DNA of 64,000 bases from Gemmatimonadota bacterium (GCA_040752145.1 JBFMFL010000004.1:13031-77030); one strand, 5' to 3'. Positions 17,549-53,538 are shown, counted from the first letter of the stretch. Program-made: numbers and translations. Notes: generated by a model from the sequence alone, not told the origin.

Positions 17549-17693
17549 GGTGCCAATACTGGCGGCCCTGTTCCCGGCGCGAAAATCCGGAGTGTGGTGT
17601 CACCTTCTATTTACCGGATGGTGCTGGCGGGTTCTGTATGGTGTGAATAGCTTGCGTTGCTCACCCGGTTTTCCCCAGCAACAGGAGGTTCCC

Positions 17694-17912
17694 ATGCGTA
17701 GAGCGATGATCCTCGGACTGTGCCTTGTCGCTTCCCTCGCCGCGTGCGGCGGCGAGACCCCCACAGGTGTGAACACCCCTGAAGGTCCGAGTTTCGACAC
17801 CGGATTGTTGGTGGGGAGCGGAGGGCAATCTGCGGAGGGCGCGGGAGGGACGACTACTACTTCGGACAGCACGACCGCCCGGTCGGGCTGGCTGGTCGGA
17901 TCGGGCGGTTAG
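17694..17912 (+). CDS. Small lipoprotein (72 aa)
   Basis: An AGGAGG sits 5 nt upstream of ATG 17694. Lipobox 'LVASLAAC', followed by Gly/Thr/Ser-rich mature sequence. Its end overlaps the convergent TPR-like gene by 4 nt. An analogous lipoprotein sits next to the right-hand TPR-like gene. Confidence 0.55.
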   Translation: MRRAMILGLCLVASLAACGGETPTGVNTPEGPSFDTGLLVGSGGQSAEGAGGTTTTSDSTTARSGWLVGSGG

Positions 17913-19264
17913 TGCCCGGATGACAGGGGCCGGCGGGCGGGCACGAGTTGCTGCCCTCCCGCCTCCCTTTCGACGCTGGGTTGTACGGGCCGCCGCATGG
18001 GCCGTTGGCGGGCCTGGAGAAGGAACATGATCCGGTCGTGGATCTCCGGGATGTGGCTGTCCTCCGGTGGCTGTGCGGGCGGGATCGGCGCCTCCAGCGC
18101 GTGAATGGCGGCGATGAACTCGTCCACCCCCTGCACGATTTCTGTCTCGCCCCGCGCCACCGCAATTGCACGCGCTCGCGTCGCAAAACGAAGCCCGACC
18201 TCCCCTTGGGCGAAAAAGCGAGCTCCGTACGCGGCGTGGGCTAGCGCCGCGGCGGCATAGGTGTGCGTACGCTCAACCAAGTTCTCGATGTGCTGCACCG
18301 CCTCTTCGTACAGCTGCTTGAACCCCGCCCCGGCGGCCGCACGGGACAGCGTGCCCCAACTTACAAGTTGAATCTCGAGTCGCTGGATGCTGGGAATGGA
18401 AGCCTGGAGTAGAGACGCGGCCTGCGAGTAGTAGCCCTGCTGGACAAGCAGAAAGCACCAGTCGTGGATGAGACCGGGAATCGCCGAGTGATGGACCGGA
18501 TAGTGTTGCAGTGCGCTCAGCATGTGGGCCTCGGCTTCGGGGTAGCTGCCGAGCATCACAGCGAGGGCATACAGGTCGTGGTGGGTCTCCGCGGCGAGGC
18601 GGTGGCGGCGAGTGGCGGCACAAAGACGCGCCGCCCGATCCAACAACGGGCGCGCATCGTCCAGCCGGCCGTGTTCTCGCAGGATCGTGCCCTTGCCGAG
18701 CAGAGCGCGGATCATCTCGCGCCGGTTCCGGTTCCCATCACGGCCGGCGATCCGGATGCCATAGTCGAACCAGCACTCGGAGCGGTCCGGGTGACCCGCA
18801 ATTCTGGCCATGCGCCCCGCGAAATTTGCACTAGCCGCGATATGTGGAGCGACTCGTACAGCGGCCTCTGAGTACAGAAGCGCGATGCAGCTCAAAGAAT
18901 TCCGGTGGGCCCACCGAGCGATGCGCTGGCAGGCTGCATTCAGGACTTCCGCAGTGGCGCGGTCCGAATCCGTGCGCAGGGCGGAGAGTGCCTGTACCGC
19001 TTCGGCAATGCTTTCACAATGCTCTGCCGCGAATCGGAGCGCATCGGTTCGATTCGGACTTGGTGCAAGTAGCAGCTTGGGCCGCTCCGTGGGGGTGGAC
19101 TCCGCCCAGAGCCGCAGATCGCGCAGCAAGAGCAGCAGGGCGAACAGGATGTGATCATCCCCGAGCGCATCTGCATCCTCGATGAGCTTGTGCTCCGGCA
19201 ACCATCGTGGCGCCGGAGGTAAGCTCCGCGGGCGGGGCTCGCGCTTGTTGGTTGTCTGCCCCAT
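17909..19264 (-). CDS. TPR-like all-helical regulator-type protein (family copy 1; low-GC copy)
   Basis: 451 aa of helical repeats. It shares 'RHRL', 'AAAGAG..(L)YEEA' and overall layout with 36934..38277 and 27452..28441. GC is visibly lower than in neighbouring genes. Confidence 0.65.
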   Translation of the reverse strand: MGQTTNKREPRPRSLPPAPRWLPEHKLIEDADALGDDHILFALLLLLRDLRLWAESTPTERPKLLLAPSPNRTDALRFAAEHCESIAEAVQALSALRTDSDRATAEVLNAACQRIARWAHRNSLSCIALLYSEAAVRVAPHIAASANFAGRMARIAGHPDRSECWFDYGIRIAGRDGNRNRREMIRALLGKGTILREHGRLDDARPLLDRAARLCAATRRHRLAAETHHDLYALAVMLGSYPEAEAHMLSALQHYPVHHSAIPGLIHDWCFLLVQQGYYSQAASLLQASIPSIQRLEIQLVSWGTLSRAAAGAGFKQLYEEAVQHIENLVERTHTYAAAALAHAAYGARFFAQGEVGLRFATRARAIAVARGETEIVQGVDEFIAAIHALEAPIPPAQPPEDSHIPEIHDRIMFLLQARQRPMRRPVQPSVEREAGGQQLVPARRPLSSGH

Positions 19265-19515
19265 CCGAATCTGAGGTGGCGAGTAGCGTGCGTTCGCAGG
19301 GCGCCATTAACGCGGACAAAGTAGACGCTGCCCCGGCGTCCTGCAATGCACCCTCGGTCACCCGCCGGAGACCAGCACCAGTCTCGGCCCTGTCCACCCT
19401 CTGTCGCGCGGCTGCCGTGAAAGCGATTCAGGACGTGGTGGAGGCGGAGGAGGCTCAGGCGTGGGCAGCCCTTGAGGAATGGGCACGCTCGCGCCGCCCT
19501 GGCTGCCGAGCATGC

Positions 19516-19956
19516 TCATGGGCGCCTCCGCCGGTCCTCGATCTCCAGGGCGAGCCACCGCGGCACGTCCTCCCCGGCCTCGTGGTAGAGGTGAGTCAGG
19601 GTCTCGGCAAGCTTCAAGCGGGCGCCGTACCGCGCGCTCGCCGGCAGGTCGTCCATCAGAAGGGCCAGGCACACGGCTTCCACCGGCATCTCCGCGGCCG
19701 GACGGTCCGCGGCCCATTCGCGAATGCGGTCCAGGTTGGCGACTTCGGGCACGCTGCGCATCTCCAGGAATTTTCTCACCACCGAGCGCCCCACGCCGAT
19801 CATCCGCGCGAGCGCCAGCTGCCCCGTGTGCGTGCGCAGCTCCCGCCGGATCACCTGCCGCAGCTCCTCCAGCCCCCACGCATCTGCCACCCGGTTGAAC
19901 CCGCCGGTCCGGCTTGGCGCCACTCCGGTCCGCTGCAAGTAGTCTGTCTGCTGCAT
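19516..19956 (-). CDS. HTH protein (146 aa), left copy of a duplicated family
   Basis: 104 of 146 residues match 39858..40298 in a gap-free alignment by eye. HTH-like core 'GQLALARMIGVGRSVVRKFLE'. Confidence 0.75.
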   Translation of the reverse strand: MQQTDYLQRTGVAPSRTGGFNRVADAWGLEELRQVIRRELRTHTGQLALARMIGVGRSVVRKFLEMRSVPEVANLDRIREWAADRPAAEMPVEAVCLALLMDDLPASARYGARLKLAETLTHLYHEAGEDVPRWLALEIEDRRRRP

Positions 19957-20506
19957 ACGTGCTCCCTGTTGAGGTGTGCCGCGTCACGGAATACGTTGCA
20001 GTCATGGGCGCTCCGGCGATATTGCGGACGGGAGAGGCGGGAAACGTGCGGCGGGCTCCATGGCAGGTCCCTGCGCTCCAATGTGGACAAAATGGACGCC
20101 TGGGTCCTGCCCGATCTCGCAACCCGTGCACGCTCGCCGGCTTCTCGGGAGGTGGAGGCCGTTCTGAGGGACCTGACGTCCGGCCTTCATGTCCGGGGCA
20201 GTGCGGATCGGGCTCTCGAACCGCGTGTTCCAGGTCCCGCGCCTGCGAGGAGGCCGCCTGGCTCCAGGGTAGGTCCCACCGGACGGCAGTATACAGAGTG
20301 GACATCTGGGGCCTGGCGAAGACGGAATTGATCCTGGAGTGACGAAAAGGAGAGGCGCCTGGCGGGGTGAACCTGCCAGCGCCCTCGCAATTCTGGCTCA
20401 CACCGGAACCCGTTCTGAGCTCATCCCGCTGCTCGTGCGGGAATCTGGGTCCCAGGTCCGGACCTGCCTGGCTCCAATCGAGCGCGGAAAGCCGCTGTCG
20501 ACGGAC

Positions 20507-24940: not shown

Positions 24941-26218
24941 TCAGGCGAGGGCGAGCTCGATCTGGCGGGGTGGAGCGCCGCGGAGCATGTCGGGCAGGTA
25001 GAGGCGGAGGTCCTGCACGTCGCAGAACTCGAAGGCGGAGCCGCGCAGGTACGTCAGGGCCAGCTCTCCGGCCAGCCACCGGCGGCCGGCCCGCTCGGCC
25101 GCGCGCGCGGTCTTGCCGCTCCCGCTCGCCGGGTCCACGACCAGGTCGCCCGCGTCGGTGAGGAACTCGATGAACCAGGCGGGCAGGGCCTCAGGGAAAC
25201 GGGCGGGATGGGCCGGGATCCCCGCGGCCCGGCAGGCGCGGAGGTAGTACGAGCCGCTGTCGGTGTTGGGGATGTCGAGGAGCGTGCCCGGGATGCTCCC
25301 GCGGTTGCGGCGGGCGAAGGCGCCCGCGGCGAGGCGGTGGCCGCTGGGTCGCACGCCGGCGCGGTCGCCGCCGGAGGCGATGCGTCGCTCCATCGCGGGC
25401 GAGTACGGGCGCAGGACCCTGGTGTTCGATGCCTTCGGGTGCGGCGTCTTCGAGAACCAGAGGCACGGCTCCACCGTCGGCGTGACGCGCTCGCGGCGCA
25501 CGCACACCCACTCGGCCGGGCCGGGGAGCTTCGCCCGGTTGTGCCAGTAGAAGGTCTGGCACTTGAAGAACCCCAGCTCGTCCGCCAGGGCGACCGCGAG
25601 CCGCTCGATGTACAGCGACTGCGCCGGGATCCCCTCCCGCCAGACCTCGCCCAGGTCCAGGACCATGCTTCCGTCCTCCGTGAGCTTGGGCTTCCATGCC
25701 TCCGCGAACCCCAGCGCCCAGCGCACGTGCTCCTTCTCCGGGTGCTGGTTGGCGTAGGGCTTACGGGTCAGCAGGGGGTACGGAAGGGACGTGAAGAGCA
25801 GGTTGACGGAGTCGTCGAGGACGACGCCGGCGGTGTCGTGCAGGTCGCCCCAGAGCATCGTGCCGAGGGCCGTCTCGAAGACGACGCAGACGCACCCGCG
25901 CGGCGCCGGCTGGAGGGCGTCGGCTCCCTGCTCGGTGAGTGCCCACACGCCGTCCTGCGGGCCTCGCACGTACCCGCGGAGCTTCGCCTTCTGCTGGGCC
26001 CACCGGACCCGGTGGGCGAAGTCGTTGACCCGGCGGGTGCCGCCGATCGGCACGGTGGCGGCGCGCTCGGCCGGCGAGAGGTCGAAGCGCTCCGCGAGCG
26101 CGTCGTAGGCGTCCGGGGTCCGGAGGGCGCCGCCGGCGGCCCGGATCTCCTCCAGGAGCGGCAGGACCAGCGCGCCCTGCGAAGGCAGCGAGGACACCGT
26201 CAGAGGCGGAGCTGCCAC
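24941..26218 (-). CDS. Beta-class N4/N6 DNA methyltransferase with an N-terminal Mrr_N-like winged-helix domain; no adjacent endonuclease
   Basis: Motif IV variant 'LLFTSLPYPLL' precedes the SAM motif I 'LVVDPASGSGKTARAAERAGRRW' and 'HPARFPEALPAWFIEF'. This is the PF01555-type order. The N-terminus 'LVLPLLEEIRAAGGALRTPDAYDALAERFDLSPAE...RVRWAQQKAKLRGYV...GVWALTEQG' resembles the Mrr N-terminal domain. Confidence 0.75.
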   Translation of the reverse strand: MAAPPLTVSSLPSQGALVLPLLEEIRAAGGALRTPDAYDALAERFDLSPAERAATVPIGGTRRVNDFAHRVRWAQQKAKLRGYVRGPQDGVWALTEQGADALQPAPRGCVCVVFETALGTMLWGDLHDTAGVVLDDSVNLLFTSLPYPLLTRKPYANQHPEKEHVRWALGFAEAWKPKLTEDGSMVLDLGEVWREGIPAQSLYIERLAVALADELGFFKCQTFYWHNRAKLPGPAEWVCVRRERVTPTVEPCLWFSKTPHPKASNTRVLRPYSPAMERRIASGGDRAGVRPSGHRLAAGAFARRNRGSIPGTLLDIPNTDSGSYYLRACRAAGIPAHPARFPEALPAWFIEFLTDAGDLVVDPASGSGKTARAAERAGRRWLAGELALTYLRGSAFEFCDVQDLRLYLPDMLRGAPPRQIELALA

Positions 26219-28544: not shown

Positions 28545-29255
28545 TCAGGCGGCCCAGCGGGCGTCGCCGTCCCGGTAGGGGTGGTGGGAGGCGTCGAACT
28601 CGTCGCAGGCGCGGTCCTCGTCGGGCCCCCACTCGTCGCCGTAGTGGTTGCCGCCGTAGAGGGTGCCCCGGCCGGCGCGGACCTCGTCCTCCATGTGGAC
28701 CAGGTCGCGCGCGATGCGCATCAGCGTCTCGAGGTCGATGGTGTAGCCCCGCTGTGCGAGCTTGACGACGCGCTCCAGGGTGTTGAACCAGGGGATGCCG
28801 TCGCGCGGCGGGCCGGAGTAGCTGAGCCGGAGGGCCGTCAGGTCGTCGTAGAAGTCCTCGTGCGCGGCGGAGCGCCAGCTGCGGGTGGGCGTCCACCAGA
28901 CGGCGGCCTTGCAGACGGTGAAATCGAACCCGTCGAGGAGGTCGGCGACGTCGTGGAAGGGGCGCCCGAAGATGATCTGGACGGGGGTGGGGAGCTCGAC
29001 CGTGAGCGCGATCGACGTCTCGGTGACGGGTGCGCCGTCGGCGAGGGCGGCCGCGATCCGGCGGGCCTCGGCGGCCGTGGCCTGGACGAAGACGTCGATG
29101 TCGCGGATCGGGGCGCCGGAGACGACCGAGCGGATCATGCCGCCGGCGAGGACGGCGCGGGGGCCCAGCTCGCGGAGCGTGCTGGCGACCGCGGCCGGGA
29201 TCAGGTCGAGGACGGCGCGGAGATGGCGCTCGCGAAGGGGGGCGGTCGGCTGCAT
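28545..29255 (-). CDS. Pol-beta-superfamily nucleotidyltransferase (CCA-adding/poly(A)-polymerase-like head domain)
   Basis: 'VLAGGMIRSVVSGAPIRDIDVFV' fits the 'GG.vRD...g....DiD' catalytic signature. High GC3 continues upstream of the ATG in this frame, so it may be fused to the upstream ORF. Confidence 0.6.
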   Translation of the reverse strand: MQPTAPLRERHLRAVLDLIPAAVASTLRELGPRAVLAGGMIRSVVSGAPIRDIDVFVQATAAEARRIAAALADGAPVTETSIALTVELPTPVQIIFGRPFHDVADLLDGFDFTVCKAAVWWTPTRSWRSAAHEDFYDDLTALRLSYSGPPRDGIPWFNTLERVVKLAQRGYTIDLETLMRIARDLVHMEDEVRAGRGTLYGGNHYGDEWGPDEDRACDEFDASHHPYRDGDARWAA

Positions 29256-31004: not shown

Positions 31005-31208
31005 TCACGGCGAAGCCGGGGCGCCCGGGGTGTCGGTGGGGGGAGGCGGAAGAAAGCGGACCGCGGCGAAGCCCTGCCACCGCCCGTCGACCAGCTCCTG
31101 GCAGAAGGCGTATTCGGCCGGGCGGCCGCGGACGGTGGTGGGGCGGAAAGCCGTACGGCGGAACTCCGGGCCCTCCACGGCCCAGGCCGGAGCCTCCGGG
31201 GCGCTCAC
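31005..31208 (-). CDS. Hypothetical small protein (67 aa)
   Basis: GTG start overlaps the stop of the ThiF-like gene (GTGA at 31205-31208). High GC3: '...RPAEYAFCQELVDGRWQGFAAVRF...'. Confidence 0.4.
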   Translation of the reverse strand: MSAPEAPAWAVEGPEFRRTAFRPTTVRGRPAEYAFCQELVDGRWQGFAAVRFLPPPPTDTPGAPASP

Positions 31209-32008
31209 GCGAGGGCCGCGGCACGTTCGCGCAGGCGGCGGCGGATGCGGTGCTGCTGCTTGATCTCCCGCCATGCCTCGGCCTTGACCGGGATCCTGGA
31301 GTAGATGGCGCCGGCCGGGTCCAGGAACTCGGCGTGGTGGGAGATCTGGCCGAAGCGGAACAGCTGCTCCAGAAGGTTGAGGGCGTGGGTCGCGACCAGG
31401 CGGTTGAGGAACATCCCCTGGCGCTCGATCGACTCGGCCTGGGAGCAGCTGGGCAGGTTGTCGTCGTCGAGGGACGGGTCGATCATGTCCGGGTACAGCT
31501 CGGCCACCATCGGGAGACGCTGTGCCTCGAGGCGGTTGGGGCTGGTGCGCGGCTGGCCGAGGATGTACTGGCCCTTCTGGTCGGTGTTGCCGAGGTCGAG
31601 CCAGTAGATCACGGCGCTATTGTCGATCCGGTCATGGATCACCTGGCGGGCCCCGCGGGTGTCGACGCAGCTGATGACCAGGTCGTAGTCGACGTTTCCG
31701 CCCGTGGGGCTGAGCCGGGTGGGCAGCGCGCGCCAGCGCAGGCCCCAGTACGGGTTGATGCGGTCGATCAGCACCACCGCCTTGTTGGAGCCGACGTCCG
31801 CGGGGGAGAACACCTGGCGGACGCAGTTGGCGGTGGTGACGACGCTCCCGTCCATCGCCGTCACGGAGAGCCCGTGCGGGTGGCCGAGCGCCTTCATCCC
31901 CATGTGCAGGAACGGCAGGCCGGACAGGATGGCCGAGCCGGTGCCGCCGCATCCCACGACGAGAACGCGGACGGCGCGGGTCAGGAGTGCGGGGTGGAGG
32001 AGGTGCAC
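31205..32008 (-). CDS. ThiF/MoeB/E1-like adenylyltransferase (PRTRC-type ThiF family protein)
   Basis: Rossmann motif 'RVLVVGCGGTGSAILSGL', then 'DGSVVTTANCVRQ' and 'DLVISCVDTRGAR'. 267 aa. It directly follows the E2-like gene. Confidence 0.75.
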   Translation of the reverse strand: MHLLHPALLTRAVRVLVVGCGGTGSAILSGLPFLHMGMKALGHPHGLSVTAMDGSVVTTANCVRQVFSPADVGSNKAVVLIDRINPYWGLRWRALPTRLSPTGGNVDYDLVISCVDTRGARQVIHDRIDNSAVIYWLDLGNTDQKGQYILGQPRTSPNRLEAQRLPMVAELYPDMIDPSLDDDNLPSCSQAESIERQGMFLNRLVATHALNLLEQLFRFGQISHHAEFLDPAGAIYSRIPVKAEAWREIKQQHRIRRRLRERAAALA

Positions 32009-32012
32009 GGGA

Positions 32013-32723
32013 TCAGGACTCGATGAAGGCGGCGAGGGTCTCGTCGGCGGGCTTGAGGTGCTGCACGGGGAAGCGCTTGCGGCCGGCGAGCGGCTTCCAC
32101 AGCGCGTGGAAGCCCTTCGGGTGCGCGGTGGGGTCGAAGCGCAGCGTGTTGAAGTCGCTGCGGAAGTACCCCGCCTCCCAGGCGGGCATCGCGTCGACGC
32201 CGTGCTCGGACGGGCGCGGCATGGAGCCCATGCAGACGGTCTTGTCCGAGTAGTCGTTGGGGTACGGGGCCAGGAAGAGCGGGGTCTCCGGGGTGGGGGC
32301 GGTGGCGTCGCGGAGCGCGCGCAGCATCAGCTTCCCGTCGACGGCCTTCCAGACGAGGGCCGGGTGGGGGTACATCTTCCCGGACAGCTCGCTGAACGCC
32401 TTGCTGCTGCCCCGGAAGAAGAGCGCCCGCTGGCTGGGCGCGGTCCACCAGACGATGGTGTCGTCCGTGAGGCAGAGCACGTTCGGGGGCAGGTAGCGCC
32501 GGGTCAGCTGGCGGGTGCCGAGCGTCTTGCTGAGGTCGAGCAGGAACGCATGGCTGAGCAGCTGGTGGGGCCCGAGGCTCGCTTTTCCGGCGGCGTGGTG
32601 CTGCACCGGGTGCAGGGTGGCCATGGCGCGGACGCTGCTGCTCCCGCCCTCCCCGGTGTAGAGGAGGAGGCCGCCTGCGAGAGAGAGGCTGGTCTCGCGG
32701 CCGAGGTCGACGGAGCCGGTCAT
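32013..32723 (-). CDS. E2/UBC-like protein (PRTRC protein B-like)
   Basis: 'APYPNDYSDKTVCMGSM' has an HPN-like tripeptide (YPN) and a Cys with the same spacing as canonical UBC 'HPNINSNGSIC'. ATGA overlap with the upstream gene. Confidence 0.6.
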   Translation of the reverse strand: MTGSVDLGRETSLSLAGGLLLYTGEGGSSSVRAMATLHPVQHHAAGKASLGPHQLLSHAFLLDLSKTLGTRQLTRRYLPPNVLCLTDDTIVWWTAPSQRALFFRGSSKAFSELSGKMYPHPALVWKAVDGKLMLRALRDATAPTPETPLFLAPYPNDYSDKTVCMGSMPRPSEHGVDAMPAWEAGYFRSDFNTLRFDPTAHPKGFHALWKPLAGRKRFPVQHLKPADETLAAFIES

Positions 32724-33993
32724 TCGTCGTCGGGTGGCTTGACGTTGGAGTCGTTCTGGGGGGTCCGGTCGAGGATCCGGCTCGCCCCCACGAGGAGGGC
32801 GCAGAGCAGGGCGAGCCGGTCGAATGCGCTCCGGACGCTGGTGGGGTCGTCGGCGCGCATGATGAACAGGGAGGACGGGGGGTGGCTGCCGATCTGCGGC
32901 CAGACCTGGCTGTCCTCGTCCCAGTAGTGCTGGATGACGTCGCCCACCTCGTAGACCGCGAGGAGCGCCGGGAGCACGGGGCCGTCGTAGTAGCGGGAGC
33001 TGTCGAACGGGAGGCAGTCGGGCTCGGCCGTCGCCGCCAGGCGCGCCAGGTCCGCCGCATCCTGGAGGAGCGAGCGCAGATCCGGGGCGAGGGCGGAGCC
33101 GTGGGCGGCGAGGGCGGCCTCGGGCGCGACCGGAGAGCAGTGCATGTAGCCGGGCAGCACTTCGGCCGGGTCGTCCAGGTAGCTCATCCGCTCGGCCAGG
33201 TCTTCCCGGTAGGCTTCGTCGTCCTCGGACCCCGCTTCATCGCCCTCGAACTTCGCTTCCAGGCACTCGAGCTCGCCTTCCAGGCTCTCCTTCTCGCCCT
33301 CGAAGCACGCGAACGCGTCGGCGTGGTCGTAGGTCCGGAGCCAGTTCTCGAAGATGGCCAGGAAGGAGAAGTAGAAGGCGCTGGCGAGGTCGGGCGACAC
33401 CGCCTCGAAGCGCTGCAGCGTCGGCCCCAGCTCCGCGAAGGCGGCGCTGTAGGAGTAGACGCCCAGGTAGAGCGGGTCGCTGACGCCGCCGTCTCCCGTC
33501 CGCTTCTCGAAGCCGTTGTCGATGGCGAGGTGGGAGAGGCGCGCGGAGAGGGAGAAGCGGCGGTCGATCTCCGGGCCGCCGTGGAGCTGGAGCCAGCGGT
33601 CCAGCGTGCGCTGGACGAACTCGGTCGGCGAGCGGTCGCTGGCGAACCAGTCGGCGCCGAGGCCGATGCCGGTCTCCAGCAGGCTGCGGCAGAGCGCGAG
33701 GGAGCGCTCGTTGAGCTCGTGGATGCGGTGGACGACGGGGACGCCGTCCAGCAGCGGCAGGGTCAGAACGGGGGCGGAGCGAGGATCCCCGGGGGCAGGA
33801 ACAGCGGCTGCGACGTCGGGTTGCTGGTGTGCGCGCTGACGGCGCGGAGCAGAAGGTCGGCGGCGCGTTGCGAGTCGGGGCATCGCAGCAGTTCCTGGAC
33901 GATGGGGGTGTTGACGGGGCAGGTGCCCTGCGCGATCGAGTCGATGTCGCGCAGGGCTGCCTCCCGGTCCGGGTCGGGCGGCGCGTCCAGCAC
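32720..33993 (-). CDS. Large acidic helical protein (PRTRC protein F-like), with an apparent 1-nt frameshift near 33770-33774
   Basis: The real N-terminus appears to be the ORF 33763..33993 ('MLDAPPDPDREAALRDIDSIAQGTCPVNTPIVQELL...', high GC3). It runs into the 32720..33883 frame ('...PVLTLPLLDGVPVVHRIHELNE...') at a C5 run. The annotated N-terminus of the latter ORF has poor GC3. Confidence 0.55.
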
Positions 33994-33996
33994 CGT

Positions 33997-34239
33997 TCAG
34001 CCCTTGGAGCCGAGCACGGTGGTGAGGGTGTGCACCCGCTTGTTGCCCTTCACCTCGGGGCCGGAGACCGTGGCGGTGGCGATGTCGGGGTAGCGCGCGG
34101 CGTAGAAGCGCTTCGCCTGCTCGATGTCGGTCTCGCCGGCGGGGAAGGGGAGGGTGGTGCCGTTGTACGAGATCGTGTCGGTGATCTTCTCGACCGTCAC
34201 GCCGCGGCGGGCGGGCTGGATGGTTCCGGTGGTCGGCAT
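33997..34239 (-). CDS. Ubiquitin-like small protein (PRTRC protein C-like)
   Basis: 80 aa: 'MPTTGTIQPARRGVTVEKITDTISYNGTTLPFPAGETDIEQAKRFYAARYPDIATATVSGPEVKGNKRVHTLTTVLGSKG'. It ends in a free C-terminal Gly. Size and position fit the Ubl of E1/E2 cassettes. Confidence 0.6.
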   Translation of the reverse strand: MPTTGTIQPARRGVTVEKITDTISYNGTTLPFPAGETDIEQAKRFYAARYPDIATATVSGPEVKGNKRVHTLTTVLGSKG

Positions 34240-34286
34240 GTGGGGTTCGCTTCCTGGGGGAGGTTGAGGGTGGTGCCGGAGGTGGG

Positions 34287-34802
34287 TCAGTTCGCCGCGG
34301 CGGCGACGGCGGGCGCGCCCATCACGTCGATCCCGAACAGCGTCAGCTCGCCCGTGTCGGTGGGCTCCCGGGGCCCGCCCTCGTCGGGCACCTCGGTGGC
34401 GATCGCGACGGTGGTGATCGTGGTGGTGCGGGAGGCGGCGGCGCCCGCGGCGGCCCCGGTGCCGGTAGCTCCGGCGGCTCCTCCCGCGGCCTTCTTGGCG
34501 CCCTTGCCTTTCAGCGTGTCGCGCGCGGCCGCCGAGGCGGCGACGACCGCGGCCCTGACCTCGTCCAGCGTGGTCCGCAGGCCGGCGTGCGCCTCGGTGT
34601 ACTCGCCGAGGAGCTGCGGGAGCGCCTCGTCCACCTCGTCGTAGCTGCCGGTGACGAGGAGGGGCTCGCAGAGCGCGGGGTTGTCGTCCTTCGCGAGCTG
34701 CTCGGGGATGACCGCGACCTGGAGCTCGTCCTCGCCGAGCTGGCAGAGGGCGAGCATCACGGGGCGGCCGGTGGCGAGGATCGGGCGGAGTTCCTTGAGC
34801 AT
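34287..34802 (-). CDS. PRTRC protein E-like protein
   Basis: A ~90-aa globular N-terminus ('MLKELRPILATGRPVMLALCQLGEDELQVAVIPEQL...'), then an Ala/Gly/Lys/Thr low-complexity linker and an acidic tail. Confidence 0.5.
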   Translation of the reverse strand: MLKELRPILATGRPVMLALCQLGEDELQVAVIPEQLAKDDNPALCEPLLVTGSYDEVDEALPQLLGEYTEAHAGLRTTLDEVRAAVVAASAAARDTLKGKGAKKAAGGAAGATGTGAAAGAAASRTTTITTVAIATEVPDEGGPREPTDTGELTLFGIDVMGAPAVAAAAN

Positions 34803-34841
34803 TCGGATGTGGCGTTGGGGGGTGCTGGGCCGCGGTGCGGC

Positions 34842-35450
34842 CTAGCGGGAGGTCCAGACGTGGACGTAGCCGCGGTGATCGACGCTGCGCACGTCGGCCG
34901 CGAGCTGGAGCATGGTGCGGCCGATCGGCCACGCGTACGGGGTGAGAGGGTGAAGGGTGATCCCGTCGACGCCGGCGAAGGCGCCGCCGAAGGCGGCCCG
35001 GTGGAGGGCGCGCTGGAGGTCGTGGTCGGAGTCGCCGCGGTGCGCCGCCACCAGGTGCGCGCCGACTCCGGGGGCCTGGGCGAGCCACACCGTGGCGGTC
35101 GTGGGGTGGAAGCTGTGGCGGACGGTGGAGAGGTGGACCCGCGAGGCGGGGATGGCGAGCGGGGTCGCCGGCCGCGGCGGCGACGGGTCCAGCTCCCAGG
35201 CGCCGACGCCGATCGGGGAGACGAGGAATCCGCCGGCGCCGGCGGCGCTCGCGCGGAGAATGGCCACCACGGTGGCGATCCGGGTGCCCGGCGGAAACGC
35301 GGCCAGGCGGTCCACGTGCCCGGGCCGCAGCACGCGGTAGAGGGTCACGGGCGGCCCGAGGCGGGGCGGGCCGCGCGGCTGGAGCGCCGGCGCGGGCGCC
35401 CGTGCCGGCCGGGCGGCGGCCATGGACGGGGGACGTCGGAGGTCGATCAT
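34842..35450 (-). CDS. Hypothetical 202-aa protein in the position expected for PRTRC protein A
   Basis: ATGA overlap with the upstream gene. 'HSFHP' and 'GDSDHD' only loosely resemble a JAB/MPN metalloprotease motif. Confidence 0.4.
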   Translation of the reverse strand: MIDLRRPPSMAAARPARAPAPALQPRGPPRLGPPVTLYRVLRPGHVDRLAAFPPGTRIATVVAILRASAAGAGGFLVSPIGVGAWELDPSPPRPATPLAIPASRVHLSTVRHSFHPTTATVWLAQAPGVGAHLVAAHRGDSDHDLQRALHRAAFGGAFAGVDGITLHPLTPYAWPIGRTMLQLAADVRSVDHRGYVHVWTSR

Positions 35451-36810: not shown

Positions 36811-36853
36811 GGTTGAAAAGAAAAAAAGGAGCCCCGCGCCATCGCGCGGGGCT
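36811..36853 (-). terminator. Rho-independent terminator/attenuator-like hairpin in the 5' leader of the minus-strand gene run
   Basis: The minus strand reads AGCCCCGCGC-GATG-GCGCGGGGCT (10-bp perfect GC-rich stem, 4-nt loop), then CC-TTTTTTT-C-TTTT. It lies 66-108 nt upstream of the first start codon (36745). Confidence 0.6.
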
Positions 36854-36933: not shown

Positions 36934-38277
36934 GTGTCACCGTGGGCGCGCATGCGGACCGACACGGTGTCCACCAATCCAGCCGCCATGCCATCTGTTC
37001 CTGAGCCGATCCGGCGCACGTGCCCGCTTGCCGTGGGTCCCCTGACGCAGGAGGAGGAATCCCCGGAGGGTGTCGCCATCCTGCTGGAGGTCCCGGGCGC
37101 GCCGGGCGCGCTCCTGTGGGGCGCGCTCCGCGACGTGCTTCTCTGGATCGAGGCTCGACGGAGTGGCCAGGGAAAGCTGTTCGCGCCGGACGCGGCGCGC
37201 ACCCGCATCGAGTGGATCCGCTCTCATCCGGTGCCGGAGGACCTCGTCCCGCCGTTGCTGGTGCTCGCCGAGATGACCGGCGAGGCCGGGGGCGTGATGC
37301 GGGACGCTGTGACAGTGGCCTGCGGGCGGGTCGCTACATGGGCGATGGAGAACGGTGCGGTGGAGCTCAGGCTTGCGTTCACGGAAGCTGCAGCGCTCCT
37401 TGCCCCCGAAGATCCACACATGGCGCTTGCAGCCGGGCGACTGGCTCGCGACGTGGGCCGCCCCGCGCGGGCGGAAACCTGGCTGCGAAAGGCGGTCAAG
37501 CTGGCCCGCAACCGAGACTGGGAGACGTACGTGTGGGCCTTTACCGGGCTGGGGCTCATGTACTGGCGCGCCGGGAACCTCCGTGGGGCGCTCGCGGTCG
37601 CTGAGCGCGCCCTGCGCACTGCCTCCCGGCACCGGCTCCGGCACCTGGAGGGCGTGGTGCTGCACAACCTCTTCATGTTCGTCTCCGACCACGACGTCGC
37701 CAGAGCGTACCAGCATGTCTGGGGGGCGCTGCGCGCGTACGGAGCGGGGAACCCGCGCCTCGCCGTGCTGGCGCAGGACGTCGCCTGCTACTGGGCGGAC
37801 CACGGGCAGTTCGCCCGCGCTCTGCCGGTGATCGAGGCGGCGCTGCCCCGCATGTCCGACCCCCACGAGCGCATGCTGGTGCTGGCGGGCCGGGCCCGCG
37901 CAGCGGCAGGGGCCGGTCTCACGGACGTGTACGAGGAGGCGAGGGTTCAAACTCTTCGGGCCCTCTCGGAGACCCACGGCGAGGCACGAGCGGCGGAGAC
38001 GCTGGTCGTGCTCGCCTCGGCCGACCTGCTGGCGCGCAAGATGGACCGGGCCGAGGAGGCTGCGCGCCGCGGAGCAGAGACCGCGGCCCGCCGCGGCGAG
38101 CATGCCGCTAGGATGGCGGCCGAGGCGGTGATCGAGGCCGCGCGCGCACGGAGGCCGCACGCCTCCAGCCGAGCCGCCCCGGAGCCAGCCGGCCTTGCCC
38201 GTCAGGCGGACCGTCTACAAGGAGACCTGATCCTCTCGCTCGCGGGGGAGCCCGCCGGTGGGACTCACGCTCTTTGA
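36934..38277 (+). CDS. TPR-like helical regulator-type protein (family copy 2)
   Basis: 447-aa helical repeat protein. Shares 'LLWGALRDVLLW', 'RHRL' and 'AAAGAGLTDVYEEA' with the other two copies. Alternative in-frame ATG at 36952. Confidence 0.65.
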   Translation: MSPWARMRTDTVSTNPAAMPSVPEPIRRTCPLAVGPLTQEEESPEGVAILLEVPGAPGALLWGALRDVLLWIEARRSGQGKLFAPDAARTRIEWIRSHPVPEDLVPPLLVLAEMTGEAGGVMRDAVTVACGRVATWAMENGAVELRLAFTEAAALLAPEDPHMALAAGRLARDVGRPARAETWLRKAVKLARNRDWETYVWAFTGLGLMYWRAGNLRGALAVAERALRTASRHRLRHLEGVVLHNLFMFVSDHDVARAYQHVWGALRAYGAGNPRLAVLAQDVACYWADHGQFARALPVIEAALPRMSDPHERMLVLAGRARAAAGAGLTDVYEEARVQTLRALSETHGEARAAETLVVLASADLLARKMDRAEEAARRGAETAARRGEHAARMAAEAVIEAARARRPHASSRAAPEPAGLARQADRLQGDLILSLAGEPAGGTHAL

Positions 38278-38299
38278 GCCCCGCCGGCAGCTCCGATTC

Positions 38300-38527
38300 C
38301 TACGGCGTGGTGACCACCGTCACGGTGTCGACGGGCGCCGAGGTCGTGCCGCCCGGTTCACTGCCGTCGGCAGTACGGCCCCCGCCGCCCACCATGCCGA
38401 TGCCGTCCAGCGCCGGGGTCGGCGAGGGGCGGACGGCAGGATCCGTCGCCCCCTGTGAGTCGCAGGCCGAAAATGTCAGGGCGAGGGCGAGTGCGAACGT
38501 GGCCGTAAAAGCGCGGAGCCTGCTCAT
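38300..38527 (-). CDS. Small lipoprotein (75 aa)
   Basis: Lipobox 'LALTFSAC', then Gly/Thr/Pro-rich mature sequence. Convergent with the TPR-like gene, as in the left module. Confidence 0.5.
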   Translation of the reverse strand: MSRLRAFTATFALALALTFSACDSQGATDPAVRPSPTPALDGIGMVGGGGRTADGSEPGGTTSAPVDTVTVVTTP

Positions 38528-38670
38528 GGTGTAACTCCTTTCGGACAAATGGAAAGCGAGGGCAAAGGCGCACTCGGCCTGTGCCCGGGGAGAAGTTCCG
38601 AAAGGTGCGCCCGCTCCGGTCCGAGGGTCAAGGCGCGTCGTGAAAACCACCCCCCGATGGGGATTCCCTG

Positions 38671-39507
38671 ATGCAACCTGTTGTTCGCCCGCTCTTTCTC
38701 TTGCACTCGGACCCGGCGCTGCGCCACGCCCTGGGCCGCATTCCCGGCCAGCCGTACATCCTCTCGCTCGTGTCGAACTGGGAGGCTTTGCAGGATGGTT
38801 TGCGCCGGGCGCCGCCAACCGCCCTGGTGGTGGCTGACCCGCGTGGTGAGAGCGAGGAGGGCGGCCTTACCTGCGCTCTCGCCGAGCTCCTGCGCACCTA
38901 CCCCTCCGCCACGGTGCTCGCGGCGCTTCCGGTTGCTCCGGAGGATGCGGAGCTGGTGCTCAGGTTGAGGGAGTGGGGTGTCGCCGACGTGATCGACCTG
39001 GCTCGGGAGCGCACCCCGGAGGCGCTGGAGCGACGCCTCCGGGTCGTACAGGGTCGGGCCGTTCGGCGTCTCCTCCAGCGTGCCCTGCCGCCCAATGTGC
39101 CGGGGCGCACCCGGACGCTGCTCGCGGCCGCGGCCGAAGTGGTATCCCGCGGTGGCCAGTCCCCGGAATTTGCCGCGTCGCTCCAGGTGACGGAGCGGAC
39201 CGTCGCCCGTTGGTGCGAGCGGGCGGACCTGCCCCCGCCGCGGCGGCTCCTGGCCTGGATGCGGATCCTGCTCGCCACGGAATTGCTCGACGATGCCGGC
39301 AGGTCGCTGGAGTCGACCGCGCGGGCCTGTGGATACTCCGGTGCGGGAAGTCTGAAGCCCGCGCTGCGCAATTTCCTGAACAGGTCAGCGCGTGAACTGC
39401 GCGAGGCGGGAGCGTTCGCCACGGCCGTCCAGGTGTTCCGCGAGGAGATGGACCAGATCCGTGAGGCAGGCCGGAGCGTGAAGCCGGCCAAGGTCTGGCT
39501 GAACTGA
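38671..39507 (+). CDS. Receiver-like domain + AraC-type HTH transcription regulator
   Basis: The N-terminal ~120 aa have a CheY-like layout ('PLFLLHSDPAL...ALVVADP...VLAALPV'), but the acidic pocket is incomplete. The C-terminus 'SPEFAASLQVTERTVARWC...ARACGYSGAGSLKPALRNF' is an AraC/XylS-type double HTH. Confidence 0.6.
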   Translation: MQPVVRPLFLLHSDPALRHALGRIPGQPYILSLVSNWEALQDGLRRAPPTALVVADPRGESEEGGLTCALAELLRTYPSATVLAALPVAPEDAELVLRLREWGVADVIDLARERTPEALERRLRVVQGRAVRRLLQRALPPNVPGRTRTLLAAAAEVVSRGGQSPEFAASLQVTERTVARWCERADLPPPRRLLAWMRILLATELLDDAGRSLESTARACGYSGAGSLKPALRNFLNRSARELREAGAFATAVQVFREEMDQIREAGRSVKPAKVWLN

Positions 39508-39857
39508 TCGGCTACGGAGTCATGCGCCAGAAGGTTCTCCACGGCCTCGCGACCGGGTATTTCGAGACGCGCTTTGAAGAACCCGGCCGGCGGCATTCAG
39601 GAGCCCGGCTTTTCGCAACTCGAACGGCTTTCGGGCCGCAGCGGCGATTCCAGGCTCCAGCGGAGCAGCCCTGGGTACGTGCAAATCCCCAGCTTCTGCG
39701 GCCGTTTGGGCTCCCGCTGTCCACTCTGTCCACCTTGCACCGTAGGAGCCCGGTCCGGGAGCCGCCGTGCGCCGGCCGGTCCTGACCTACGCGGTGCCGC
39801 GGTGCCCCTTGTCGTAAGGAGCTCCGTACCGGGGCAAACCATTACTCAGGAGCGCGT

Positions 39858-40298
39858 ATGCAGCGGATGGAATACCTGCGGCGAACAGGGGTGGCAGCGA
39901 GCCGAGACGGCGAGTTCGACCGGCTCGCGGACGCATGGCGGCTGGAGGAGCTGAGACAGGTGATCCGGCGTGAGCTGCGCACCCATTGCGGTCAGCTGGC
40001 GCTCGCGCGGATCATCGGCGTCGGGCGTTCGGTCGTGAGGAAGCTCCTGGAGATGCAGAGCGTGCCCGAGCCCGAAAACCTTGGCCGCCTGCGGGAGTGG
40101 GCGGCTGACCGCCCTTCGGCCGACACTCCACGGGCCGTGGTGTGCCTGGCGGTGCTGATGGAGAACCTGCCGCCGAGCGCGCGGTACGGCGCCCGTCTCG
40201 AGGTGGCCGAGACCCTGACCCGGCTTTACCGCGAGACCGGCACTGAAGTGCCGCAGTGGCTCGCTCACGAGGTGCAAGACCGCGGGAGGGAGCTGTGA
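39858..40298 (+). CDS. HTH protein (146 aa), right copy of the duplicated family
   Basis: 104/146 identical to 19516..19956 (gap-free alignment by eye). Confidence 0.75.
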   Translation: MQRMEYLRRTGVAASRDGEFDRLADAWRLEELRQVIRRELRTHCGQLALARIIGVGRSVVRKLLEMQSVPEPENLGRLREWAADRPSADTPRAVVCLAVLMENLPPSARYGARLEVAETLTRLYRETGTEVPQWLAHEVQDRGREL

Positions 40299-40615
40299 GT
40301 TCGCCCGGCGGACAGCCTGTCGCGAGCCTCCCGGCTACACCCGAGGCGTCCGCGCCCGTGCAACTCCCCCGGAGTCCCCGGTGCGACCCGTCCACCCCTC
40401 CGGAGCGGGTACGTCGGGTTGCTTCCGGCTTCTGCTGGTCTCGGGTGGATAGAGGATGCGTCTCCCGAGAGGGTGGGTCTCCTGCCGCTGAGGGCGACCA
40501 GCACGCGAGAAGCAGAAGCTGGGTGGAGCACATACAAGCTGCCACCACTCTCCGCTACACAGGAAGTGCCTCCATGCGCCGGATTTCGCCGCTGCAAAGG
40601 GAGTAACTTGGTGCC

Positions 40616-41437
40616 ATGGACATGACTCCTGATGCAGTCGCGCTACGATACCTGCGTTACCTGGCCGTTCGCGAGGGCGGATACTCCCGTCGCGGGGTGC
40701 CGGGATGGGCGATGCGGGAAGACGTGGAGCAGGCCACCGACCAGAAGCTGCCGGAGCGCCTGCCGCGCCTTCACGCCCGCGGGCTGCTCGACCGCGAGGA
40801 CGTCCACGCGCCACACCTGACCCGGCCGGCGTGGATCTACCGGATCAACCAGGCAGGGGGAGATCGGGTGGCTGAGGAGGCGGATCTACCGCTCCGCGTG
40901 ATTCCCGGTCTGTTGCGCCATGGACCGGAGCGGCAGATGGATGCAGCCGTCTACATCCCGCCCGGTGCAGTCCTGGCGCTCCGCGAGCTGTGCTGTGCGA
41001 TGGACGCGCGGGTCGAGTCCCGGCACCTCCCGGGGGAGCGGGGATGGCGGAACGCCGCGGATCTTCGCGAGCAGTTCCTCGGGGAGGACCCAGCCAGGTC
41101 CCACTGGGAACCGCGCAGCAGCGGAGATGCGTGGATGAATGCCCGCGAGGTGGACGAGACTGAGCTCCTGCCCGGAGAGCCGTGGATGGGCGACCACGAT
41201 GGGCTGGACCAGGTCGCTCGCGAAGAGCGAGAGTGGGGATGGGATCCGCTTGTGGGGGAGCTGCCGCTCGGCCCCACCCCGCGGACTCCCTTGCCCGATG
41301 ACCTGCGGTGGCTTGTGCGGGTGGGTCTGGTGCAGCAGTGGACCGCACAGCACCCCGGCCGACGGCGGGTGACGCTGTATCGAATCACTCCCCTCGGCGG
41401 CGTAGTCATCCCTCTCGAGTGGCGGGAGCCTCGATAG
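40616..41437 (+). CDS. Hypothetical 273-aa protein, right copy of the duplicated family
   Basis: Paralogue of 16724..17548 on the opposite strand. Confidence 0.75.
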   Translation: MDMTPDAVALRYLRYLAVREGGYSRRGVPGWAMREDVEQATDQKLPERLPRLHARGLLDREDVHAPHLTRPAWIYRINQAGGDRVAEEADLPLRVIPGLLRHGPERQMDAAVYIPPGAVLALRELCCAMDARVESRHLPGERGWRNAADLREQFLGEDPARSHWEPRSSGDAWMNAREVDETELLPGEPWMGDHDGLDQVAREEREWGWDPLVGELPLGPTPRTPLPDDLRWLVRVGLVQQWTAQHPGRRRVTLYRITPLGGVVIPLEWREPR

Positions 41438-45369: not shown

Positions 45370-46296
45370 TCACACCGCCAGCGCAGGCTCCTCGAAGCCC
45401 TCCTGCTCGAGCTGGATCGTCGCGTGGCCGATCCCGAAGCGGTCGTGGAGCGGCGCCCGGATCTGCCGGAGCATCGCCTGGCCGAAGTGCTCCTCGTCCA
45501 CCACCACGTGACCCGACATCGCCACCATGCCGCTGGTGATCGTCCACACGTGCAGGTCGTGCACCGCGCGGACGCCGGGCACCCGCTTGATGGCCTCGCT
45601 CACCTCGTCCACGTCGATGTGGCCGGGTGCGCCCTCCATCAGCACCGCCACCGTCTCCTTGAGGAGCGCCCACGACGAGTAGAGCACCAGGACGCCGATC
45701 AGCACCGACGCGGCCGGATCCGCCCACCGCCAGCCGAAGGCCCAGATCAGCCCGCCGGCGGCGATGGCCCCGACGCTCCCCAGCGCGTCCGTCAGGACGT
45801 GCAGCCACGCCCCGCGCACGTTCAGGCTCTCCGACCTCCCGGCGCTCAGGATCCAGAGCCCGGCCAGGTTGACGGCGAGGCCGCCGAGGGCGATCCCCAC
45901 CATGAGCCCGCCCTGGACCTCCGGCGGCTCGCCGATGCGGCGGTACGCCTCCACGAAGATGTAGGCCGAGACCGCGACCAGGGTGGCGCCGTTGAGCAGC
46001 GCCGCCAGGATCTCCGTACGGTAGAAGCCGTAGGTGTGCTTCGCCGTCGCCGGCCTCTGCGCGATCCAGATGGCGAACATCGACAGCGCGAGCGCCGCCA
46101 CGTCCGAGAGCATGTGCCCCGCGTCGGCCAGCAGCGCCAGCGAGTTGGTCAGCAGCCCGCCCACCACCTCCGCCACCATGTAGGCGGCGGAGAGCCCCAG
46201 CACCACCGCCAGCCGCTTCCGGTTCTTTGCCCCGTACGACCCGCCGTGCGAGTGCCCGTGGGCGTGTCCCGGCCCGTGGCTATGCCCGGCTCCCAT
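45370..46296 (-). CDS. czcD: Cation diffusion facilitator (Zn/Co/Cd efflux)
   Basis: His-rich N-terminus 'GHSHGPGHAHGHSHG'. CDF signature 'SLALLADAGHMLSDVAAL', 'HVLTDALGSVG', and a C-terminal cytoplasmic domain 'VHDLHVWTITSG'. Confidence 0.9.
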   Translation of the reverse strand: MGAGHSHGPGHAHGHSHGGSYGAKNRKRLAVVLGLSAAYMVAEVVGGLLTNSLALLADAGHMLSDVAALALSMFAIWIAQRPATAKHTYGFYRTEILAALLNGATLVAVSAYIFVEAYRRIGEPPEVQGGLMVGIALGGLAVNLAGLWILSAGRSESLNVRGAWLHVLTDALGSVGAIAAGGLIWAFGWRWADPAASVLIGVLVLYSSWALLKETVAVLMEGAPGHIDVDEVSEAIKRVPGVRAVHDLHVWTITSGMVAMSGHVVVDEEHFGQAMLRQIRAPLHDRFGIGHATIQLEQEGFEEPALAV

Positions 46297-46336
46297 GTGC
46301 CTCCTCCGTTCGGTGGTTGCGCCTCTCCCGCAGGTC

Positions 46337-46458
46337 CTCGGTCCACGCGCAGAGCCCGGGGCGGACCCGCAGGGTCACCGGCGCAGACGTCGCCAGCCCC
46401 CGGCCGCCACCGCGGCGAGCGGGCTCTGCACCTCGCCGCCCGTCCCGTGCGAGAGCGC
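46337..46458 (-). pseudogene. Remnant of the 3' end of a czcA-like RND gene
   Basis: The minus strand encodes 'ALSHGTGGEVQSPLAAVAAGGLATSAPVTL..PGLCAW', against 'ALSHGTGAEVQRPLATVVIGGLVTSTLLTLLVLPTLYAW' at the end of the intact czcA. The nucleotide similarity to 47231-47352 is obvious by eye. Confidence 0.6.
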
Positions 46459-46503
46459 GCAGCGCGTGCGGCCCGGGCGCCGGGCCGGAGCGCCACCCCT
46501 CCA

Positions 46504-47151
46504 TCAGGTCCCCCCGCGCGAAGGCGGGTGGCCGGGCTTCCGCGCCAGCGCCACCTGGAAGGTGCCGCCGAGCAGCGACGGCTCCCGCCGGACCAGCTCC
46601 AGCCCGCCCGCCCGCAGCAGCGGCCCGAGCCGGCGGTTGATCTCCGTGGCCAGGGTGCCCATCACCAGGTTGGCGGCGCTCCGGAGGACGGACGGCCGCG
46701 CATCGTCCGGGAGGAACTTGTCGAAGACCGACGCGCGCCCTCCCGGCCGGAGCACCCGCGCGGCCTCGCGCGCGCACGCCTCCGCGTCCGGGACGACGGC
46801 GAGGATCAGGTGCAGCGCCACGCAGTCGAAGCTCCCGTCGGGGAGATCCAGCCGCTGTGCGTCCATCACCTCCGCCGTCACCGGGCGGCCGAGCGCCCGG
46901 GCCCGCGCCCGGGTCCGCTCCACCATCGCCGGCGTGTAGTCGATCGCCGTGACCTCGGCGCCCGCGGGCAGGTGGTCCAGGTCGAGCCCGGTGCCGCAGC
47001 CGACCAGGAGCACCCGCTCCCCCGGCCGGACGTCGAGGAGCTGCAGGGCGCGCCGGCGGCCCCGGTCCAGGTAGCGGACGAAGAGGTCGTAGAACGGGGC
47101 GTACAGGGTGTAGCGGACCCGGTTCCACGCCGCGGTGTTGGTGCGGACCAT
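46504..47151 (-). CDS. Class I SAM-dependent methyltransferase
   Basis: Motif I 'RVLLVGCGTGLDL', 'FDCVALHLIL' and 'LRPGGRASVFD'. Its ATG at 47151 lies 1 nt after the czcA stop. Confidence 0.75.
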   Translation of the reverse strand: MVRTNTAAWNRVRYTLYAPFYDLFVRYLDRGRRRALQLLDVRPGERVLLVGCGTGLDLDHLPAGAEVTAIDYTPAMVERTRARARALGRPVTAEVMDAQRLDLPDGSFDCVALHLILAVVPDAEACAREAARVLRPGGRASVFDKFLPDDARPSVLRSAANLVMGTLATEINRRLGPLLRAGGLELVRREPSLLGGTFQVALARKPGHPPSRGGT

Positions 47152-47152
47152 G

Positions 47153-50308: not shown

Positions 50309-50317
50309 GGCGGCCCC

Positions 50318-53489: not shown

Positions 53490-53505
53490 CCGGGACCCGG
53501 ATATC

Positions 53506-53522: not shown

Positions 53523-53538
53523 ATATGAAGGAGTGTTC

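Follow-up and report, generated by a model that had tools for sequence, protein, structure and literature searches.

A reduced PRTRC-type (operon type 6d) cassette for E1-like, E2-like and ubiquitin-like proteins in a Gemmatimonadota bacterium

A 64,000-nucleotide stretch of DNA from a Gemmatimonadota bacterium (GCA_040752145.1, JBFMFL010000004.1:13031-77030), hereafter the window, encodes on its minus strand a ubiquitin-like protein (Ubl), an E2-like protein and a ThiF-family E1-like protein as close neighbours. A preliminary description, made from the sequence alone, recognised here a Ubl / E2-like / ThiF-E1 cassette of the PRTRC (ParB-related, ThiF-related cassette) type and put it forward as an undescribed system. 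The locus raises three questions: whether the cassette is new, whether it is intact given a frameshift suspected in one of its genes, and what it might do with no ParB, protein D or JAB-type deconjugase in sight. We find that it is a genuine, intact PRTRC-type cassette, otherwise known as operon type 6d, in a reduced form without JAB (protein A) or ParB.

Identity and architecture of the cassette

All of the features listed in the preliminary description were recovered at the same positions, between 31205 and 35450 on the minus strand, with the cassette core proper occupying 31205-34802 (Table 1). Four adjacent genes exceed the trusted cut-offs curated by NCBI for the PRTRC models of NCBIfam. 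These are protein E (TIGR03741, 60.6 bits, cut-off 37.95; the match to Pfam PRTRC_E is weak, at 13.9 bits), the Ubl or protein C (TIGR03738, 52.8 bits, cut-off 45.95; Prok_Ub, PF14454, E = 4.3e-15), the E2-like protein B (TIGR03737, 144.5 bits, cut-off 131.45; Prok-E2_D, PF14460, E = 1.5e-31) and ThiF (TIGR03736, 263.7 bits, cut-off 144.75; Pfam ThiF, E = 1.3e-11). The order E-C-F-B-ThiF, on one strand and tightly packed, agrees with the annotated PRTRC records of EbN1, Paraburkholderia, Pelobacter and phage Dina. Neighbours among the six core genes either overlap at stop and start or lie 4-47 nucleotides (nt) apart, and the gap from B to ThiF is 4 nt with no gene between. These matches go far beyond what chance would give. 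The proposed family and gene order are therefore correct, but the cassette is not undescribed: in 2006 a computational study by Iyer, Burroughs and Aravind (PMC1779556) defined its kind, operon type 6d, which has been catalogued since then, also as the TIGRFAM/NCBIfam PRTRC families.

The ThiF/MoeB-type protein, noted earlier for its VLVVGCGGTGS motif, carries all of the residues that are invariant among 76 family sequences, namely the GxGGxG loop (G19, G21, G22 and G24), R64, K76, D116 and R121. The preliminary description rightly saw no CxxC pairs in it, but one cysteine, C188 in the motif PSCS, is likewise invariant among the 76 sequences, and we infer it to lie in the crossover loop. A Rossmann nucleotide loop, Arg/Lys/Asp catalytic residues and a conserved Cys, the hallmarks of the E1 superfamily, are thus all present. 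Among solved structures the ThiF-family profile matched E. coli ThiF best (E = 1e-6), then Uba1, Uba5 and MoeB, with MccB, Uba4 and Cap2 also found (E = 1e-6 or weaker); a single-sequence search of the same kind with the window ThiF gave nothing meaningful. Its best relatives, at 46-53% identity, come from Acidobacteriota metagenome-assembled genomes and a viral contig.

In protein B the motif YPNDYSDKTVC has the UBC-like spacing that had been claimed for it, with 8 residues from N156 to C164 as in the HPN...C of UBC proteins. Across 68 sequences N156 is conserved in 100% and C164 in 99%, and both are present in the window; a sequence search of solved structures with B gave no match. The Ubl gene stops directly after ...TVLGSKG, as had been described, so that the protein is encoded ending in Gly80, and this G-x-K-G terminus is 98% conserved in 56 sequences.

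Relatives were gathered by scanning one genome per species with a ThiF alignment, which yielded the 80 loci most similar to the query; proportions within this set are not a census. Layouts were counted in the 72 genome loci that allowed both B and ThiF to be located, and 43 of the loci without protein A were longer than 12 kb. Annotated canonical cassettes read ParB-E-C-F-B-A-ThiF. This form, mostly proteobacterial, accounts for 20/72 loci, in which A fills a gap of 659-844 nt between B and ThiF. The remaining 52/72, mostly from Acidobacteriota, have no A, and ThiF follows B within 14-174 nt (6.8 kb in one case). The window belongs to this reduced form, its ThiF being 46-52% identical to the Acidobacteriota copies.

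A hidden Markov model (HMM) of 10 canonical A proteins, applied at E<=10, found no protein A in the six-frame open reading frames (ORFs) of the 64-kb window, nor in the 43 longer A-less loci. ParB was likewise not found in the window by tblastn with the EbN1 PRTRC ParB, by a PRTRC-ParB HMM on all window ORFs or in Pfam/NCBIfam scans of about 50 window ORFs. The scanned cassette and downstream minus-strand genes gave no NCBIfam match to protein D (TIGR03739), which is also unannotated beside the canonical cassettes inspected. The reported lack of ParB, D and JAB is thus real, but to be without ParB and JAB is nothing special: besides the A-less majority above, only 2/43 of the longer A-less loci have a ParB match, and A-less layouts occur among viral contigs in IMG/VR as well. 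A minimal core of six genes, for E, Ubl, a small ORF described below, F, E2 and E1, is widespread without JAB or ParB.

Presence of protein A goes together with the form of the Ubl gene. In 40/40 A-less loci the Ubl ends exactly at ...[ST]KG followed by the stop, whereas in 14/18 A-containing loci it has extra C-terminal residues. This correlation fits a role for protein A as, at the least, a Ubl-maturing peptidase, and A would be dispensable in the reduced form because the Ubl is already encoded ending at Gly. In four JAB-containing loci (L041, L047, L049 and L050; Ubl genes at ~6997-7374) a 57-amino-acid (aa) extension follows GTKG and itself ends in Gly, a hint that the pro-protein is larger or that its cleavage gives a second product. 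On Pelobacter propionicus pPRO1 (L088) the Ubl, at 3298-3501, ends in ...GTKA instead of ...KG; here B overlaps ThiF with no A between them and ParB is present, an intermediate architecture.

Protein F and a small overlapping gene

Where the preliminary description saw an acidic helical protein of ~420 aa, and suspected a frameshift lesion, there is indeed such a protein, but its reading frame had been joined from two overlapping genes, a 76-aa ORF and the 387-aa F. The window F falls below the curated HMM thresholds, with no direct match to TIGR03742 or PF14456. By tblastn its relatives occupy the F position in 42 PRTRC loci (best E = 5e-33), and hhalign aligned a profile of window-type F with the canonical F profile at 98.7% probability (E = 2.4e-16, 307 columns); canonical F is in turn the alpha-hel2 family PF14456 (E = 9e-101). 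On the strength of this profile-profile comparison, and not of a curated cut-off, the helical protein is assigned to PRTRC F. F shows 18-32% identity across the same loci in which ThiF shows ~46-52% (Acidobacteriota type), and hence diverges much faster. A search of solved structures with the F profile gave no match. Word-indexed homologue searches with F (including a fusion of the 76-aa ORF, orf76, with F) and with the 193-aa orphan upstream returned one or two near-identical proteins each, while a profile of 26 F sequences matched at least 5 proteins.

The small ORF begins 4 nt past the Ubl stop and has a G+C content at third codon positions (GC3) of 0.91, in a window of ~74% G+C. The ATG of F, at 33883, lies inside a Cys codon of the small ORF in the -1 frame, and approximately the first 40 codons of F overlap it. 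Both the arrangement and the frame relation are identical, with zero indels, in two close relatives, L001 (95% DNA identity over window positions 30209-36853) and L002 (F protein 80% identical). Moreover, an equivalent ORF of 65-77 aa (98 aa in one locus) is found in 54/63 PRTRC loci of both layouts and several phyla, starting within -7 to +8 nt of the Ubl stop; instances include L003 (6298-6507), L087 (2772-3008) and L088 (3504-3713). In 40/41 loci F opens with an ATG 103-121 nt ahead of the stop of the small ORF, the TG falling inside one of that ORF's Cys codons. In L060, L079 and phage BgVeeders33 the F ATG lies instead right at the small-ORF stop.

The ORF has no Pfam family match and is missing from the annotation of the three RefSeq plasmid records inspected. 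Because its layout is conserved across phyla, and the ratio of nonsynonymous to synonymous substitution rates (dN/dS) in its non-overlapping part is low (0-0.24), we conclude that it is a real, conserved and mostly unannotated gene, and not a lesion. A real or programmed -1 frameshift fusing orf76 and F can be rejected, since the F frame is open from a conserved ATG in 40/41 loci, since in the three loci just named that ATG stands at the small-ORF stop, and since the three close relatives differ by no indels. The similarity of the orf76 C-terminus to the N-terminus of canonical F (BLAST E = 0.06) is better explained by an LPxL motif at the true start of F.

Comparison with L001 and L002 also speaks to the state of the whole cassette. 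The dN/dS values against L001 and L002 respectively are 0.24 and 0.25 for ThiF, 0.49 and 0.40 for E2, and 0.35 and 0.74 for F; against L001 only, they are 0.65 for the Ubl, 0.43 for E, 0.31 for the orphan and 0.17 for the DUF6884 protein. In three independent assemblies, whose protein sequences are up to ~20% apart, all eight genes are intact and free of frameshifts and coding indels. The cassette genes are kept by purifying selection and are not decaying.

Accessory genes and mobile-element setting

Protein E has the build proposed for it, a globular N-terminal domain followed by an Ala/Gly/Lys/Thr linker, and carries a short motif, ELTLFGID, near its C-terminus (GELTLFGID). Proteins E of other loci (L003-L085) repeatedly show a short [ST]LF, DLF or DLASLL motif downstream of the low-complexity linker, in many cases at the extreme C-terminus; it has the look of a docking peptide. 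We take the [ST]LF form to be loosely reminiscent of beta-clamp-binding peptides.

The protein previously given as 202 aa is present upstream of E, but is more likely 193 aa long (alternative right-hand coordinate 35450). It matched nothing in Pfam, NCBIfam, PADLOC or PHROGs, and a full HMMER search of 1.84 billion proteins returned one 95% orthologue and two weak relatives of 174 and 175 aa, the latter on 2-kb contigs that hold no PRTRC genes and give no functional lead. Canonical A consists of DUF2016 and Prok-JAB with an invariant HxH...S..D motif. The idea that the orphan is a degenerate protein A can be dismissed: hhalign against the canonical A profile gave 0.2% probability, and neither HSFHP nor GDSDHD is kept by the few relatives that the orphan has.

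The gene that heads the conserved block encodes a DUF6884 protein (PF21818, E = 8.9e-12) with both motifs of that family (PMC11701544), CxxxK (as SCSATK) and LSAxxG (as LSARYG). It is syntenic in L001 and matches the PADLOC candidate PDC-M57A (E = 1.2e-8). Just upstream of the block is a strong hairpin with a 10-bp stem (9 G-C pairs), followed by a T-run; it might serve as a terminator or as a regulatory element on the 5' side, and coincides exactly with the end of DNA homology to L001.

Table 1. Features of the cassette and its surroundings in the window.
Feature	Position	Strand	Basis
ThiF-family E1-like adenylyltransferase, 267 aa	31205..32008	-	TIGR03736, Pfam ThiF
PRTRC protein B, E2/UBC-like (Prok-E2_D), 236 aa	32013..32723	-	TIGR03737, PF14460
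PRTRC protein F, acidic helical (alpha-hel2 family), 387 aa	32720..33883	-	hhalign profile-profile comparison
Conserved small ORF between Ubl and F, 76 aa	33763..33993	-	GC3, synteny, dN/dS
PRTRC protein C, Ubl (Prok_Ub), 80 aa	33997..34239	-	TIGR03738, PF14454
PRTRC protein E, 171 aa	34287..34802	-	TIGR03741
Lineage-specific orphan at the ParB position of canonical cassettes, 193 aa	34842..35423	-	no family match
DUF6884 / YaaA-like putative DNA-binding protein, first gene of conserved block, 255 aa	35447..36214	-	PF21818
Hairpin	36830..36853	-	
C5 cytosine methyltransferase	680..2095	-	
Mrr_N-fused N6/N4 DNA methyltransferase	24941..26218	-	
Nucleotidyltransferase	28545..29255	-	Pfam Gad2 (L001 orthologue), PHROGs
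Left paralogous block	16724..19965		
Right paralogous block	36934..41437		
Heavy-metal resistance region	45370..63998		ORF size, sequence motifs

By codon-position G+C the cassette belongs to an unbroken run of minus-strand genes from ~20.8 to 36.8 kb. Further along that strand the window encodes two orphan DNA methyltransferases and a nucleotidyltransferase, the latter with an L001 orthologue that matches Pfam Gad2 and with matches to phage nucleotidyltransferase PHROGs (Table 1); these are typical defence and anti-defence cargo of mobile elements. For most of the other array genes no family was matched. Searched with the cassette, neither PADLOC nor PHROGs returned a match at system level, and ThiF gave only weak CBASS E1-E2 matches in PADLOC. 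At the borders of the island no tRNA was found, nor an integrase among the ORFs scanned.

The family as a whole is carried by plasmids, integrative and conjugative elements and phages. Its ThiF occurs in 404 plasmid records and in 66 IMG/VR contigs of mixed layouts, and among isolated phages in Ralstonia phage Dina (E-C-F-B-A-ThiF, no ParB) and Burkholderia phage BgVeeders33. Moreover, phage-type genes adjoin the Acidobacteriota copies of the cassette. From this carriage, and from the methyltransferase, Gad2-like and YaaA-like neighbours, we conjecture that the role of the cassette most likely lies in conflict between mobile element and host, or in establishment of the element, and not in housekeeping.

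Two inverted paralogous blocks, with DNA identity of ~74%, bracket the 20-kb minus-strand array, each with genes for a PadR-like protein of ~273 aa, a 146-aa protein and a TPR protein of ~450 aa; the right-hand block is mostly absent from L001. The island is followed on its right by a region for heavy-metal resistance, judged from ORF sizes and sequence motifs, with a putative RND-type efflux operon (a 1051-aa pump and two flanking genes), a cation-diffusion-type protein and a putative 769-aa P-type ATPase.

Possible function and relation to known systems

The account that we favour, and consider rather probable, is that this intact type 6d cassette of reduced form carries out E1-to-E2 conjugation of its Ubl without reversal. 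By analogy with known E1/E2 systems, the ThiF-like E1 would adenylate the free C-terminal Gly80 of the Ubl, which should need no processing because the gene already ends at ...GSKG. The Ubl would then be held as a thioester on Cys188 of the E1, passed to Cys164 of the UBC-like E2 and transferred to lysines of one or more targets. A role as specificity or adaptor subunits is probable for F, E and the small protein. F diverges fastest and, along with the other two, would best fit the task of choosing the target. Tagging would be irreversible, as there is no dedicated deconjugase.

Several points weigh against this account. Adenylation, thioester transfer and conjugation are all drawn from analogy, the beta-grasp (Ubl), UBC (B) and E1 folds are assigned by HMM matches only, and no target, effector or E3 could be identified. 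AlphaFold2 models were unusable for F (5-sequence alignment, pLDDT 32.8) and for the orphan (4 sequences, pLDDT 40.3), and Foldseek found nothing below E = 3 for the latter. A literature search for experimental work on any PRTRC cassette returned annotation mentions only, in line with what the preliminary description had stated, and a 2026 paper says that the function 'has not been studied'. The Ubl departs from its family at several conserved positions, and Ubl (0.65) and E2 (0.40-0.49) have the highest dN/dS of the core enzymes. Moreover, two family residues have been lost. E1 Asp55, conserved in 99% of the family, is Ser in the clade of the window. The FTH motif of B, with His in 96% of 68 sequences, reads FNT (Thr193) in the window, L001 and L002, the only sequences with a non-His residue there, the other two exceptions being alignment gaps. 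This is the His, C-terminal to the conserved Cys of E2, that Iyer et al. 2006 (PMC1779556) called 'absolutely conserved'. The chemistry of this clade may therefore differ from the family norm and be altered or weakened.

Those losses could be read in two other ways. The Ubl might be activated but not conjugated to proteins, feeding instead sulfur transfer or the modification of a small molecule or peptide, as in systems of the ThiS/MoaD, MccB or Uba4 type, with the E2-like protein as carrier or scaffold. The ranking of solved E1 relatives, with E. coli ThiF closest, then Uba1, Uba5 and MoeB, and MccB and Uba4 also matched, is in keeping with this, as are the missing family His in E2 and the lack of a deconjugase or recognisable E3. 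However, in neither the cassette nor its conserved neighbours did we see a rhodanese, a cysteine desulfurase, a ThiG/MoaE-type partner or a peptide-precursor gene, the UBC-type Asn-x7-Cys is conserved at 99-100% in 68 members, and the tail-bearing Ubl precursors of JAB-containing relatives mirror ubiquitin-type maturation; we regard this alternative as unlikely. Alternatively, the locus might be a functionally degenerate remnant that has lost ParB and JAB, accumulated mutations in E1 and E2 and persists only through recent acquisition. The absence of ParB, A and D, the changes of E2 His193 to Thr and E1 Asp55 to Ser in this clade only, and the failure of direct HMMs for F all suit such decay. 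Yet eight genes are intact in three assemblies, without frameshifts and with dN/dS of 0.17-0.65, the A-less, ParB-less and tightly packed layout is common to dozens of Acidobacteriota loci, and the suspected frameshift is a conserved gene overlap, which makes degeneration very improbable.

A different kind of explanation would have the cassette act as a partition or maintenance module of a mobile element, its Ubl chemistry regulating segregation or replication proteins on DNA. In its favour, a ParB-family gene opens the canonical cassettes, the window block is headed by the gene for the YaaA-like, putative DNA-binding DUF6884 protein, and the motif of protein E may loosely resemble those that bind the beta clamp. 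The annotation literature also labels the cassette as partitioning, without a test (PMC13366799). Against this, the window locus and most of its relatives have no ParB, nor does the cassette of phage Dina, and in the vicinity of the window cassette we saw neither a ParA/ParM-type ATPase nor an array of centromere-like repeats. We give a partition role little credence.

One-way conjugation thus remains the reading that we prefer, and it can be extended, tentatively and with considerable doubt, to the possibility that JAB-less cassettes are self-contained, irreversible tagging weapons of mobile elements. They would place a pre-matured Ubl on host or rival proteins, with F selecting the target, the small protein as an obligatory seventh subunit or a translational regulator, and the His-to-Thr clade using a modified transfer chemistry. 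Given that DUF6884 and ParB are neighbours and that E has a motif of the docking type, the targets might be DNA- or replisome-associated.

Among the E1/E2/Ubl operons predicted in 2006, types 6b and 6e and Bil have been characterised; for type 6d the literature search returned no experiment. The minimal six-gene core is a natural set for reconstitution. That JAB presence tracks tailed Ubl precursors points to a maturation role and suggests one-way tagging where JAB is lacking. Furthermore, constructs designed from current annotation would omit or truncate a component, the overlooked small gene. For experiments, Ralstonia phage Dina, the Aromatoleum EbN1 plasmid and other culturable carriers offer a better entry than this uncultured high-GC lineage. 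Next to the many examples that can be cultured, the present one contributes little; its main value is to have brought out the minimal core, the way in which JAB goes with a Ubl tail and the small gene hidden from annotation.

Set beside the canonical PRTRC (TIGR03734-03742), the window shares the ThiF E1, the Prok-E2_D protein B, the Prok_Ub protein C, E and an alpha-hel2 F in equal order and packing, the hidden small ORF between C and F, and carriage by mobile elements. It differs in lacking ParB, A (DUF2016 and Prok-JAB) and D, in a Ubl encoded ending at its terminal Gly, in an E2 without the His, in an F below HMM thresholds, and in having the DUF6884 protein and the 193-aa orphan where ParB would be. 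With ThiF/ThiS and MoeB/MoaD it has in common a single-domain E1-like adenylyltransferase and a small beta-grasp partner with a C-terminal Gly; those pairs, however, have no E2-like partner and belong to biosynthetic operons, and the window ThiF scores far below the ThiF/MoeB equivalog cut-offs (26.6 bits against 275).

The antiphage system Bil (bacterial ISG15-like, BilABCD) resembles the window as a small self-contained operon with separate Ubl, E2 and E1 and no obvious effector. Bil, however, has a JAB deubiquitinase and an E1 with tandem adenylation domains, whereas the window has a single 267-aa E1 domain and no JAB, and no PADLOC Bil model was matched by the window proteins. Bub (6E/DUF6527) and Type II CBASS Cap2/Cap3 (6b) are, like PRTRC, bacterial E1/E2/Ubl operons predicted in 2006, and both have since been shown to conjugate (PMC11601596). 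Bub works through oxyester intermediates on Ser/Tyr and has a serine protease, DUF6527, and Cap2 is an E2-E1 fusion that conjugates a CD-NTase. In contrast, PRTRC cassettes have their conserved Cys on a separate E1 and a separate E2, and a Ubl family of their own.

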